Source: Escherichia coli
Lineage (GTDB): Bacteria > Pseudomonadota > Gammaproteobacteria > Enterobacterales > Enterobacteriaceae
Reading direction: 5' to 3' (one strand)
Length of the DNA: 64,000 nucleotides
Assembly: GCF_009931435.1 (NCBI RefSeq)
Contig: NZ_CP043414.1
The notes under the pieces are model-generated. The model made no database searches and had not been told where the DNA came from. It saw only the letters and a program-made list of their open reading frames with translations. Positions 14,958 to 21,717 of the stretch are shown one piece after another. A program made the translations under genes and the position numbers. Each line of letters starts with the position of its first letter. The stretch's first letter is position 1.

Positions 14958-17026
<2,069 letters not shown>

Positions 17027-17034
17027 ATAAAACA

Positions 17035-17064
17035 GGAGGCGAAGGTGCCTCCCGTTTTATTTTG
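17035..17064 (+). terminator. rho-independent terminator after envZ
   Basis: Stem ggaggc/gcctcc followed by cgTTTTaTTTT. Confidence 0.7.
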
Positions 17065-17189
17065 TGCACTCAGTATCTACTGAATGAATACGGTTTCAGA
17101 CATCGGCACCATACGAAGTAAAGTGTACTGTAAGCTGATTGCAGGCTAGCGTATCCTGATTAGTAAAAGCACACTAAAGGAATAGCTTG

Positions 17190-18473
17190 ATGCAACTTAC
17201 CAACGAAGAACAAGTACAGATTGCTCGTATAAAAGAAAAAATCCCACGCATTGCCGCACTGGATCCTGAATGTAAGTTATTCGGTTCTGAAGGTTGGAAA
17301 TATCAATGGCCGAAGCCTGCCAGCGAGGCGGAAATAGCTTCCTGGGAGAAAAAACATAGCGTCACTTTGCCACGGGAATATCGAATTTTTCTTCGCTATA
17401 TCGCTAATGGCGGTCCGGCACATGCCTACGGTCTTGAATCTTTAGGCGGTACAGATATTTATGGCGATATAACAAAAGAAAGCCCTGTACCGCTTTATAT
17501 GACGCAGCAGGATGTTGATGTGTTGAATGCTGGCCGTACAGAAGATGATGAAGAATATAGTTTTTTTGACGGCGCATTGACCATTCTCACCCTGGGATGT
17601 ACTTATGATATTTGCCTGGTGGTGACGGGGCAGTATCGCGGAAGGTTAATGCTGACTGATGGTGATGAAGATTATCCGTTTGATTTTATATATGATAAAA
17701 ATTTCCTCAACTGGTATGAACGCTGGCTGGACGATTTTATTGCTGGCATGAGTATGAAGGGTTTCGATAGAAGTTTGCCAGGAACGCAAATTCAACTGCG
17801 TGAGTGGTTTTTAACTGAGAAAATCCCGGATTTACGTAGATCCATTTTATTCTCGCTATGCCGTTTTCCACAGATAGAACCCGAAACTTTTGCCCTTTGG
17901 GAACATGTTTGCCGCACAGAGAATGATAAAGAATTGTGTGAAGAGGCATTCATAAGATTACGCCAAAAAAAAGTTTCTTGTGCTGCAGATATTTTTCGAC
18001 TCTATTTTACAATGCCAGATGAATTACGTGATATTGCTATTAAAGATCTCCGTTTTGCCTGTAGAGATAGTGTGGTGAATATTGAGGATTATATTCATTC
18101 ACTGTTAATAATAATGCCTGAACTTGACGATGACACTCTATCCTCAGCTGTCTTTGCTATACGAGAAACAGAGTATAATAAATATGATACTTTTCTGCCG
18201 CTTCTCGAACGTATCACTGATGACCGTCAGCAAACATTATTGTGGGCGATGAGTAAGGTGCCTGATTTCAATGAAAGCCGAGGATTCGTTGAGTTGGTAT
18301 TACCGCTTTTTGCATCATCAAAGATGGAGAATGTAAGGAAGGCTATTTTGTTGCTCATTGAAGTTAAAGATAATCGTATTCCACCATTGGTTGATGAAGC
18401 TGCAACTCGTTTCCCTGAACTGACCATTTTACGAGAAAACTACTATCTCAGGACGTGGGGACATAAGCCATAA
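17190..18473 (+). CDS. SMI1/KNR4 (SUKH-1) domain protein with C-terminal helical-repeat extension; accessory cassette gene 1
   Basis: ATG at 17190 preceded by AGGA; N-terminal roughly 190 aa carries SUKH-1 hallmarks (WEKKHSVTLPREYRIFLRYIANGG ... FLNWYERWLDDFI); C-terminal roughly 230 aa is leucine-rich and helical; region visibly AT-rich. Confidence 0.7.
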   Translation: MQLTNEEQVQIARIKEKIPRIAALDPECKLFGSEGWKYQWPKPASEAEIASWEKKHSVTLPREYRIFLRYIANGGPAHAYGLESLGGTDIYGDITKESPVPLYMTQQDVDVLNAGRTEDDEEYSFFDGALTILTLGCTYDICLVVTGQYRGRLMLTDGDEDYPFDFIYDKNFLNWYERWLDDFIAGMSMKGFDRSLPGTQIQLREWFLTEKIPDLRRSILFSLCRFPQIEPETFALWEHVCRTENDKELCEEAFIRLRQKKVSCAADIFRLYFTMPDELRDIAIKDLRFACRDSVVNIEDYIHSLLIIMPELDDDTLSSAVFAIRETEYNKYDTFLPLLERITDDRQQTLLWAMSKVPDFNESRGFVELVLPLFASSKMENVRKAILLLIEVKDNRIPPLVDEAATRFPELTILRENYYLRTWGHKP

Positions 18474-18510
18474 ATTAATGGTTCAGAAATGATCTAACGC
18501 GGAGAAAAAT

Positions 18511-19041
18511 ATGATCAGGGAACATATTCAGCAAGCGATAAATAATAGGTTAGCATTTGATGGCCCATTCAATGTTGTTCCTGAACCTGCAAGCACTGCG
18601 TTTGATAGCCGGATCCCGACATTGAAAAACGGTGTCTGGCAGAAGGCCAGCCCTATGTTGCAGGCGCGTTTTGCACATTGTGGACGTTGGTTAAGCGCTA
18701 CACATGGAAGCTGGCTAAGTATAAGTGACATGGAAACGCTTTGGCAGGAACACATAGAAGATACGTTTCTTGATGAAATCAAAATGAATGCTGTAGCTTC
18801 AAGTGATAATTGGGATAACCATGCCTTGGGACTATTTCGTTCTCATCGCCTGTCACTTTTTGCCGGTAGTGATTACAGTTATGAGATGGTTTTTCTCCTT
18901 TGGCTAGATAGTACCGTTGAGCCAGAGGTCTGGGTTTATGACTGCAATGGGGAATCACGTTATAAAGATCTTAATGATTACCTGAATGCATATATTAATG
19001 ATGACGTAAGCGCCTGTGAGCGCTCCTGGCGAGTAGAATGA
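18511..19041 (+). CDS. hypothetical protein, possibly immunity-like; accessory cassette gene 2
   Basis: 176-aa ORF, ATG with GGAG RBS 7 bp upstream; 37 bp after gene 1; no TM segment seen; family not recognised. Confidence 0.55.
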   Translation: MIREHIQQAINNRLAFDGPFNVVPEPASTAFDSRIPTLKNGVWQKASPMLQARFAHCGRWLSATHGSWLSISDMETLWQEHIEDTFLDEIKMNAVASSDNWDNHALGLFRSHRLSLFAGSDYSYEMVFLLWLDSTVEPEVWVYDCNGESRYKDLNDYLNAYINDDVSACERSWRVE

Positions 19042-19664
19042 ATAGCCCCCCTTGCCCCTTTGATCCACAAACCGCACATTACCTCGGTACAGTGCAAATC
19101 CACTACACCTCAACCACCTTCAACGCTGCCGTTAAGCATTATACCTGTTACATTAAAAAGCGTTTTAAAGGGGTTAAATGGGGAATTGGTACCGCTGGCT
19201 TATTGGCTATATTGCCCATGATCCCACAATGGTTGAAACCTTCTCATGACTTTAAACTCAACGCAATCAGTACGTTAATTCTTCTATTAATGTTGCCACT
19301 CCTCTTATCAATGTTCCTGTTAATCAGCAGAAGAATTAACGATTTTAAGTCAAAAACAAAGCAAGTTACTTTTACGAAACCCGTGCGTTATGCGTTTTAT
19401 TTCGAGGGGATTGTTTTTTATGAATCTCATCAGCAGGGCATACTTCGCTGGGAAGATTTTTATAGCATTGAGTATGAAGAAGATTATTTGTGGCTTTTTC
19501 TGCATTTACCGAAGAGTTGGCCCAGAGAAGCGACGAAAGCGTTTTGCGATATTTTCATTCCCACCAGCGCGATAAAAGCGCAGCCTGAACTGGATACGTT
19601 TTTTCGTGAAACACGCCACTCGCTGGATTATCTGTTTGTCCCGTTTAATTCTGACAGAAAATAA
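19038..19664 (+). CDS. two-TM membrane protein with C-terminal soluble domain (YcxB/bacterial PH-like by eye); accessory cassette gene 3
   Basis: 208-aa ORF; start overlaps gene 2 stop by 4 bp (ATGA); two hydrophobic helices (WGIGTAGLLAILPMIPQWL; AISTLILLLMLPLLLSMFLLI) then about 100-aa soluble tail. Confidence 0.55.
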   Translation: MNSPPCPFDPQTAHYLGTVQIHYTSTTFNAAVKHYTCYIKKRFKGVKWGIGTAGLLAILPMIPQWLKPSHDFKLNAISTLILLLMLPLLLSMFLLISRRINDFKSKTKQVTFTKPVRYAFYFEGIVFYESHQQGILRWEDFYSIEYEEDYLWLFLHLPKSWPREATKAFCDIFIPTSAIKAQPELDTFFRETRHSLDYLFVPFNSDRK

Positions 19665-19700
19665 AAAATCCCCCGTATCTGGTGAAACGGGGGATTTCGT
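19662..19700 (-). terminator. rho-independent terminator of pck, also closing the cassette
   Basis: Stem tcccccgt/acggggga; on the minus strand it is followed by TTTTTTA; lies 3 bp after the gene 3 stop and 17 bp after the pck stop. Confidence 0.7.
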
Positions 19701-19716
19701 CGCTTAACTTATCGGA

Positions 19717-21339
19717 TTACAGTTTTGGACCAGCCGCTACCAGCGCGGCACCCGCAGGGGTGTCGGTGTATTTATCGAAGTTGTCGATAAACAGTTTCGC
19801 CAGCGTTTCAGCTTTTTCCTGCCACTGTTCCGGAGAAGCGTAGGTGTTACGCGGATCGAGGATCTTAGTGTCTACGCCCGGCAGTTCAGTCGGGATCGCC
19901 AGGTTAAACATCGGCAGAGTGAAGGTTTCTGCGTTATCCAGCGAACCGTTGAGGATAGCGTCGATAATGGCGCGGGTATCTTTAATGGAGATACGTTTGC
20001 CAGTACCGTTCCAGCCAGTGTTAACCAGATATGCCTGCGCACCCGCCGCTTGCATACGTTTCACCAGCACTTCTGCGTACTGAGTTGGGTGCAGCGACAG
20101 GAACGCCGCGCCGAAGCAAGCGGAGAAGGTTGGCGTCGGTTCGGTGATGCCACGTTCAGTACCGGCCAGTTTGGCGGTGAAGCCAGAGAGGAAGTGGTAC
20201 TGAGTTTGATCGGCAGTCAGGCGAGAAACCGGCGGCAGCACACCAAAGGCGTCTGCGGTCAGGAAGATAACTTTAGTTGCGTGGCCCGCTTTGGAAACCG
20301 GTTTAACGATGTTATCGATGTGATAGATCGGATAAGAAACGCGGGTGTTCTCGGTTTTTGAACCATCGTCAAAATCGATAGTGCCATCTTCACGTACGGT
20401 GACGTTTTCCAGCAGCGCATCGCGACGGATAGCGTTGTAGATTTCAGGTTCCGCTTCTTTCGACAGCTTGATGGTTTTCGCGTAGCAGCCGCCTTCGAAG
20501 TTAAACACGCCATCGTCATCCCAGCCGTGCTCGTCATCGCCAATCAGGCGACGTTTCGGGTCGGTGGAAAGGGTGGTTTTACCGGTGCCGGAAAGACCAA
20601 AGAACACCGCAACATCGCCTTTCTCGCCAACGTTGGCGGAGCAGTGCATAGAAGCGATGCCTTTCAGCGGCAGCAGGTAGTTCATCATTGAGAACATCCC
20701 TTTCTTCATTTCGCCGCCGTACCAGGTGCCACCAATCAGCTGCATGCGCTCGGTCAGGTTAAACGCCACGAAGTTTTCGGAGTTCAGACCCTGTTCTTTC
20801 CACTGCGGGTTAGTGCATTTTGCGCCGTTCATAACGATAAAGTCAGGTTTAAAACCAGCCAGCTCTTCATCGCTCGGGCGAATAAACATGTTTTTGACAA
20901 AATGCGCCTGCCAGGCCACTTCGGTGATGAAACGGACGGAAAGACGCGTGTCTGGGTTCGCACCACAGAAAGCGTCGACAACGAACAGACGTTTACCGGA
21001 AAGCTGTTTGGTCACCAGGCCCTTCAGATGCTGCCAGGTTTCCGGAGAGAGAGGTTTGTTGTCGTTCTTACCTTTGCCTTTATCAGCCCACCAGAAGGTA
21101 TCGCGAGTGGTATCGTCACGGACGATATATTTATCTTTTGGTGAGCGACCGGTGAATATACCGGTATCGACGGCAACGGCACCCAGATTAGTTAACACCC
21201 CGCGCTCATAACCTGTCAGGCTCGGATCGAGCTCTTCCTGATACAGCAGGTCGTAGCTTGGGTTGTAAACGATATCATGTACGTCACTGATACCATAAGC
21301 CTCGAGTTCTTGCGGGGTCAAACCATTGTTAACGCGCAT
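19717..21339 (-). CDS. pck: phosphoenolpyruvate carboxykinase (ATP)
   Basis: 540 aa from [12 protein letters not shown]; Walker-type GLSGTGKTT motif; ORF track extends 23 codons further upstream. Confidence 0.95.
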
Positions 21340-21717
21340 TTCACTGCTCCTTAGCCAATATGTATTGCCTGAATAGTAAAGTCTTTTTGGGGGTGTTAAC
21401 CGCGACAAGGCTCATAGATTTACGTATCTGGAGAAATTCATATTTGACAAAAAACTCCGTGATTCCTGTCACGAAACGGTTGCTATTATCGCAGAAATAG
21501 CATTTTAGGTGTGGAAAATGTTCTTAAAAGGTTAAATCTTGGTTTATATGGCGGGAATATTGTGAGTGGAATCGCATTCCTGAATGAAATTGATGCAAAT
21601 TCAATCAGTAAAGTATCGATTCACCACGCTAACTTTTTTTGATTATTTTCTGAAAAAAGCAAAATACTACGGCCCGGATGCGATAATTAATCCACCTTTT
21701 GATTCTGGATAACTAAC

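Follow-up and report, generated by a model that had tools for sequence, protein, structure and literature searches.

The nearest described relatives of the gene considered here belong to the YcxB family (PF14317), named after YcxB of Bacillus subtilis. The gene, gene 3 below, encodes a 208-residue protein and is the last of three that occupy the spacer between envZ and pckA in a 64,000-nucleotide stretch of Escherichia coli DNA (the window; contig NZ_CP043414.1 of RefSeq assembly GCF_009931435.1). Its product resembles YcxB proteins in length, about 170-220 amino acids, and in the order of its elements, and Foldseek finds it alike over its full length to hundreds of structural models. Sequence similarity to the family is marginal, with a Pfam E-value of 0.57 for the window protein and a best value of 6e-4 within its own subfamily, some members of which are fused to a helical domain of about 140 amino acids, in either order.

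The bPH_2 proteins YdbS/YdbT and DdE/DdF share with gene 3 a small size, two transmembrane (TM) helices and a PH-like domain on the cytoplasmic side, a placement that is predicted for gene 3. In these proteins the PH domain follows the hairpin, whereas that of gene 3 has the hairpin inside the PH-like fold and no Pfam bPH_2 match. DdE/DdF are needed for export of the leaderless bacteriocin enterocin DD14 (EntDD14), which without them accumulates in the cytoplasm and is toxic to its producer (PMC8657885); in contrast to that system, gene 3 has no bacteriocin or ABC transporter genes nearby. As the sole experimentally studied analogues that we found, DdE/DdF may serve as a functional precedent by analogy, not by membership. 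The islet formed by the three genes can be likened to orphan or poly-immunity loci (SUKH, Imm-HEAT, CdiI): these too are packed, same-strand runs of immunity-type genes without a toxin, and are horizontally acquired, rare and variable between strains. The islet differs from them in having three genes only and no recombinase, and its YcxB-type gene belongs to no recognised immunity family and is absent from the other arrays examined. A likeness to Cap15, of the cyclic oligonucleotide-based antiphage signalling system (CBASS), and to PycTM, of the pyrimidine cyclase system for antiphage resistance (Pycsar), is superficial: gene 3 shares with them two TM helices and a small beta-rich domain, but has no reproducible match to a hidden Markov model, no signal generator beside it and no conserved three-gene association.

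We conclude that gene 3 encodes a rare, divergent enterobacterial member of the YcxB family. As to its role, the reading we prefer, with confidence that is evenly balanced, is that of a membrane-tethered binding module, co-expressed with orphan immunity genes and likely aiding protection at the inner membrane. The hairpin anchors a conserved PH-like beta-sandwich, made of the N-terminal strand and helix together with the C-terminal 100 residues, at the inner membrane; the protein would be neither enzymatic nor lytic, and would bind a ligand, be it protein, peptide or lipid, and keep it at the inner leaflet. Within the islet it most likely helps to guard the cell against antibacterial toxins coming in from outside, whether by conferring immunity itself close to the membrane or by docking immunity proteins there. 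Immunity-type genes lie repeatedly just upstream of the YcxB body: the SUKH genes 1 and 2 in the window, gene 2 alone in another Escherichia, and CdiI in Salmonella. That gene 3 kills the host cell, as the killing arm of a phage defence, is probably not the case, because both its upstream neighbours are orphan immunity genes. The gene and its parts are these:

19038-19664, plus strand: gene 3, 208 amino acids, YcxB-family inner-membrane protein.
19080-19163, plus strand: conserved strand (YLGTVQIHY) and helix, residues 15-42, the first part of a split PH-like domain, with a K/R-rich membrane-proximal stretch after it (AlphaFold2; invariant columns).
19167-19328, plus strand: two-helix TM hairpin, with TM1 at about residues 44-66 and TM2 at about 76-97, joined by a short loop (KPSHDFK) predicted to be periplasmic; variable, always hydrophobic, with the highest nonsynonymous divergence (dN) of the gene.
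19383-19610, plus strand: PH-like/YcxB C-terminal domain, residues 116-191, six strands and a C-terminal helix.

An AlphaFold2 model computed from a 20-sequence alignment (predicted local distance difference test 82, predicted template modelling score 0.75) comprises a strand at residues 15-21, a helix at 25-42, helices at 44-66 and 76-106, six strands within 116-175, and a helix at 183-191. The soluble domain has a PH-like fold in this model, and the TM hairpin is inserted inside it; the N-terminal 47 residues belong to the domain. A Foldseek search against AFDB50 returned 1,571 matches at E<1e-3, nearly all of them YcxB family or YcxB-like, with E-values of 1e-12 to 1e-6, 180-220 aligned columns and template modelling scores of 0.4-0.68; the top match, an E. 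coli entry of 98% identity, bears the name YcxB family protein too. The initial annotation of this DNA, made from the sequence by eye, had likened the soluble domain to YcxB-type PH-like domains, correctly as the fold and the matches make plain; FYFEGIVFYESHQQGILRWEDFYSIEYEEDYLWLFLHLP, the stretch quoted in that connection, spans residues 120-158. It had also described a short cytoplasmic N-terminus. The side is retained, on the inference given below, but the segment proves to be no mere tail, its conserved strand and helix being part of the domain. The whole architecture, an N-terminal soluble segment, two TM helices and a beta-rich C-terminal domain within about 170-220 residues, matches the YcxB family in both model and hydropathy.

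The two consecutive hydrophobic helices reported in the initial annotation are likewise present, as a hairpin in the model and as hydrophobic segments in 20 of 20 family members, with K/R clusters on both outer flanks. TM2 is strongly hydrophobic (Kyte-Doolittle values up to 2.6-3.0); TM1 is marginal in the window protein (1.3-1.55) and reaches at least 1.9 in most relatives. By the positive-inside rule we infer an N-in/C-in hairpin, which would put the soluble domain on the cytoplasmic face. Positions conserved throughout the family are Y118, Y121, E129, Q132, G134, W138, D140, F141, I172, I174 and P175. The soluble parts are near-invariant, and the TM segments show the highest dN and carry no conserved polar residues. 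Because the TM helices vary freely while the soluble parts hardly change, we take the hairpin for an anchor and not for a specific pore. The fallback of the initial annotation, a membrane anchor with no toxic role, is the better fit.

The sequence family is very narrow: a search of 5.8 billion sequences gives 18 clusters, and one of 1.84 billion proteins gives 15 representatives at E<=1e-3. Relatives come mostly from Enterobacterales, the close ones solely from Escherichia, Salmonella and their relatives, and a locus search with the alignment of close gene 3 sequences returned three Escherichia species only. The Pfam YcxB profile scores at E<=1e-3 in one of 20 members (best 6.2e-4) and at E<=0.1 in seven. 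No Pfam bPH family figured among the matches for the window protein or its relatives; NCBIfam and PHROGs gave nothing meaningful for the proteins of genes 1-3, and a PDB sequence search with the gene 3 profile gave noise only. Relatives were absent from the plasmid and phage collections searched, and a literature search on the RefSeq accessions returned nothing functional.

At the junction with gene 2, the stop of one gene and the start of the next read GTA GAA TGA / ATG AAT, sharing ATGA. This overlap, also claimed at the outset, is real: the ORF (open reading frame) at 19038-19664 is intact, the junction DNA is identical in five E. coli strains, and the 4-nt overlap is called in E. albertii too. 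It is not universal, since a 3-nt gap takes its place in Escherichia sp. MOD1-EC7003 and gene 2 is absent at other loci. Gene 3 would be co-transcribed with, and translationally coupled to, gene 2 in the window, but the fixed stoichiometry with a cytoplasmic recognition protein that the initial annotation drew from the overlap finds no support, each of the three genes occurring elsewhere without the others. In two strains the Prokaryotic Genome Annotation Pipeline (PGAP) places the start at GTG codon 19 (190 amino acids), in others at the ATG (208 amino acids), the DNA there being identical. The shorter call drops the conserved segment FDPQTAHYLG (window 19038-19092; loci L029 and L030, 2213-2785); because residues 8-18 are conserved in all orthologues, fused forms included, we favour the upstream ATG.

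Across the Escherichia and Salmonella lineages the ratio of nonsynonymous to synonymous divergence (dN/dS) of gene 3 is 0.2-0.5, the soluble domain being the most constrained part, and on this ground we regard the gene as coding and under constraint. All six E. coli carriers read (the window and five strains) have its ORF intact, as does E. albertii, and a PGAP coding sequence lies under the match in 19 of 19 E. coli carriers. The databases also hold frameshifted or truncated variants (P0012, P0016 and P0017), and a 61-residue alternative-frame ORF (window 19390-19575, plus strand) corresponds to the C-terminal tail of P0016, which is of the E. albertii type. Frameshifted copies of gene 3, probably pseudogenised, are in circulation.

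The genes of the window on either side of the islet are tex (yhgF), greB, ompR and envZ, and pckA, yhgE, hslO and hslR. envZ and pckA are convergent and in K-12-type strains are separated by a spacer of about 75 bp; in the window the spacer measures 2.6 kb and holds three same-strand ORFs between the retained envZ terminator and a strong hairpin common to gene 3 and pckA. Besides gene 3, its features are the following:

17035-17062, plus strand: intrinsic terminator of envZ, the left edge of the low-G+C islet (terminator scan; alignment with the empty K-12-type envZ-pckA spacer).
17187-18473, plus strand: gene 1, an SMI1/KNR4 (SUKH-1) protein with C-terminal HEAT-type repeats, 427 or 428 amino acids (Pfam; RefSeq start at 17190, under the name SMI1/KNR4 family protein).
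18511-19041, plus strand: gene 2, 176 amino acids, a SUKH-fold protein without a Pfam match, predicted orphan immunity-family protein.
19038-19041, plus strand: ATGA stop/start overlap of genes 2 and 3.
19666-19697, both strands: GC-rich hairpin with an A-run on one side and a T-run on the other, at the right edge of the islet (RNA folding energies -20.3 and -21.3 kcal/mol for the two strands, with z of -3.9 and -4.6).

The hairpin is probably a bidirectional terminator serving gene 3 and the convergent pckA. A scan for a cassette promoter gave a signal no higher than shuffled expectation, and an Rfam search of 16500-20000 gave no match. The G+C content of the islet is 42%, against 53-57% in its flanks; of 5,426 complete E. 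coli genomes, 18 carry it over its full stretch and all have it at this position, the overall count of carriers being 18-19. From its low G+C content and this rarity, 18-19 carriers among 5,426 genomes, we conclude that it was horizontally acquired. The slot (window 17027-17186 and 19665-19716) is polymorphic in E. coli: it may be empty, as in K-12-type strains, or hold a NadS/RelE toxin-antitoxin pair, as in many strains, the islet, or a gene for a 346-residue fusion protein (one strain, A30). A literature search for envZ-pckA as a hotspot found no description of it as such.

Six configurations of the slot can be distinguished, in which the YcxB body beside pckA is constant and the content upstream of it is swapped. 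The order gene 1 - gene 2 - gene 3 is that of the window and of E. albertii. Escherichia sp. MOD1-EC7003 has an ORF for a 142-residue helical domain, then gene 2, then gene 3 after its 3-nt gap. E. coli A30, E. whittamii and an Escherichia sp. have the 346-residue fusion of helical domain and YcxB body without any other gene. In Salmonella a module of CdiI_5, a 91-residue ORF and a truncated CdiI_5 interrupts this fusion precisely at the border of FDPQTAH and YLGTVQ; the resulting chimeric YcxB ORF (S. enterica locus L005, 4306-6618) borrows 11 CdiI codons, starting at an internal Met of the truncated copy. A further Salmonella type encodes a 365-residue protein in which a divergent YcxB body (43% identity) precedes the helical domain (L007, 6001-7098; P0019). 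The last type is an E. albertii variant in which the gene 3 homologue is followed directly by fragments of pck (residues 344-375 and 541-563) and of the 3' end of envZ (residues 371-450), then by a NadS/RelE-type toxin-antitoxin pair and an intact pckA (L019, 8647-9013; L003/L004, 6698-7066). These fragments look like the scar of a recombination event that brought in the cassette along with its flanking DNA.

Fusions of the YcxB body to the helical domain thus exist in both orders, and the reversal suggests either an ancestral tandem of YcxB, helical domain and YcxB, or repeated fusion of adjacent genes. The helical domain, of about 140 residues, gives a Pfam HEAT_2 match no better than E 0.29 and is unrelated to gene 2; that it might be the C-terminus of gene 1 was ruled out, since BLASTP and hhalign (probability 0.3%) show no relation.

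The three genes of the window do not share one history. Synonymous diversity among five E. coli carriers is 0.004 for gene 1, 0.011 for gene 2, 0.040 for gene 3 and 0.052 for pckA, gene 3 being 4-10 times more diverse than genes 1-2 within the species (window 17187-19664 compared with 19717-21408). What appears to be a single operon would then contain parts that differ in age or in recombination history. Because its synonymous diversity is higher and the YcxB body is constant in all six locus types, gene 3 is suggested to be the older resident of the islet, genes 1-2 having arrived later. Elsewhere each of the three genes is found without the other two, in Klebsiella, Superficieibacter, Pectobacterium, Caulobacter and Corticimicrobacter. 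Because they occur separately, they appear to form no obligate three-gene system, nor does gene 3 seem, on these gene neighbourhoods, to be an obligate partner of genes 1 and 2.

The two neighbours are both of immunity type. The N-terminus of gene 1 matches Pfam SMI1_KNR4 at 2.7e-6 and SUKH_6 at 3.4e-5, and its homologues carry PF09346 with PF13646 (HEAT_2). These homologues are solitary in Klebsiella aerogenes and have other partners in Superficieibacter; no toxin gene was seen beside them in the two loci examined, and in one E. albertii assembly (L003) gene 1 is split (296 and 132 amino acids). Gene 2 has a SUKH fold that escapes Pfam, NCBIfam and PADLOC; neither partner protein, SUKH with HEAT or SUKH-fold, has an enzymatic domain. 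In Pectobacterium parmentieri a gene 2 homologue (55% identity) starts 20 nt past a VgrG-DcrB-PAAR-Rhs toxin gene (L015, 1710-6525), and in E. coli AR Bank #0349 another (49% identity) has a 4-nt overlap with the end of an orphan Rhs C-terminal toxin in a type VI secretion system locus of VgrG-DUF2169-PAAR-Rhs composition (L032, 7445-9192). Homology between the two Rhs proteins continues past the DPxGL cleavage motif and through the toxin tips, with the conserved pattern ...WNxQIxANGGSMxR...GHxPDVGWGG...VNSYIGGxTQAVPVGTTY, and gene 2-type immunity is paired with homologous tips in P. parmentieri and 31 other E. coli genomes. The matching tip is not encoded in the window. Because its homologues sit directly behind Rhs toxins, gene 2 is predicted to belong to the family that gives cognate immunity to one family of Rhs C-terminal toxins, and because no such toxin is encoded in the window, it would be an orphan there. 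Relatives of gene 2 also occur on metagenomic contigs, within a long same-strand array with Imm19, SMI1_KNR4, Imm21 and Imm32 beside an integrase, and among SUKH genes in Corticimicrobacter; SUKH arrays and Imm-HEAT proteins have been described as immunity to non-self toxins (PMC3113570, PMC3482391). The HxxD-like motif GHxPDVGWGG of the Rhs tip is a tentative lead to its activity. PDB searches with the gene 2 profile and the Rhs tip gave noise or the Rhs DPxGL motif only, and NCBIfam had no match to the tip or to the helical domain.

Several points weigh against a protective role of gene 3 as a tethered module. The link to immunity rests on one chromosomal slot in one bacterial family, and distant gene 3 homologues are solitary in unrelated contexts, after secDF and near abgT. 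A profile search of all ORFs found no YcxB-like gene in the loci, a small sample, that hold homologues of gene 1 or gene 2. The comparison of diversity covers five strains, the cytoplasmic orientation of the domain is deduced from the distribution of charges, the window protein meets the Pfam YcxB profile at no better than E 0.57, and a literature search on YcxB found no functional or experimental account. Gene 3 might then be an incidental neighbour whose function is unrelated, in envelope or stress physiology for example, the spacer serving as a permissive landing site and the overlap reflecting operon compaction; we consider this the main rival, though less likely than the reading we prefer. 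Agreeing with it are the solitary homologues, the immunity arrays without a YcxB gene, the separate population histories of genes 1-2 and gene 3, and the slot itself, which is empty in K-12-type strains and occupied by the NadS/RelE pair in others. It does not readily explain why at least three independent configurations have co-oriented immunity-type genes packed tightly just before the YcxB body, nor why genes 2 and 3 of the window and of MOD1-EC7003 have diverged to a similar degree (67% and 65% identity respectively), which suggests long co-residence.

A decaying remnant is an improbable explanation. On this account the 346-residue fusion of helical domain and YcxB is the functional unit and the 208-residue ORF a relic left after displacement by genes 1-2. 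Four of the six locus types do have the helical domain along with the YcxB body (the 346-residue fusion, MOD1-EC7003, Salmonella L005 and L007), frameshifted and truncated variants exist, one E. albertii strain has a split gene 1, and the within-lineage ratio of nonsynonymous to synonymous polymorphism is 0.37 for gene 3 against 0.01 for pckA; but the ORF is intact in every carrier read and annotated as coding in all 19, dN/dS across lineages is well below 1 with the soluble domain most constrained, and an in-frame start has been kept together with the conserved N-terminal strand. The proposal of the initial annotation, an effector arm in abortive infection, leaves the detection of an invader to the cytoplasmic proteins and has the membrane disrupted by the two-TM protein, in the manner of Cap15 or PycTM, and we hold it to be very improbable. 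Cap15-type effectors have two TM helices and a small beta-rich ligand-binding domain, which the layout of gene 3 may be said by analogy to resemble, the islet is of low G+C content in a variable slot also able to hold a toxin-antitoxin pair, and PADLOC gave a single weak PycTM match (E 0.0099). This match is absent in 10 of 10 family members, and the lead was set aside as probably an artefact of composition. There is no cyclase or other signal-generating enzyme in the cassette, PADLOC, PHROG and NCBIfam returned no match for genes 1 and 2, and the partners are SUKH proteins of immunity type with toxin-linked homologues. Nor are the three genes co-inherited outside Escherichia; conservation in the gene 3 protein is lowest in the TM helices, and phage and plasmid collections lack the gene.

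What was put forward as a possible abortive-infection effector is thus reclassified as a divergent YcxB-family membrane protein beside two orphan immunity genes. As a small orphan-immunity islet, the cassette is of a kind already known. Three details are new: a SUKH-fold immunity family that Pfam does not see goes together with a defined Rhs tip that occurs in E. coli, immunity genes have been inserted repeatedly at one point immediately before a YcxB gene, and YcxB is fused to a helical domain in both orders. None of this will much surprise a specialist. The pairing of gene 2 with the Rhs tip predicts resistance to the toxin in the 18 carrier strains. A wider proposition, that YcxB proteins are membrane-tethered parts of protection from interbacterial toxins, acting as inner-membrane immunity or as docks for SUKH/HEAT proteins at the site of toxin entry, seems to us rather unlikely; if true, the envZ-pckA islet would be the first genomic clue to the role of YcxB. 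Should gene 3 aid protection, as in the reading we prefer, it would give a first functional handle on the large YcxB family, with its thousands of uncharacterised members, and would point to a membrane-proximal layer of immunity.

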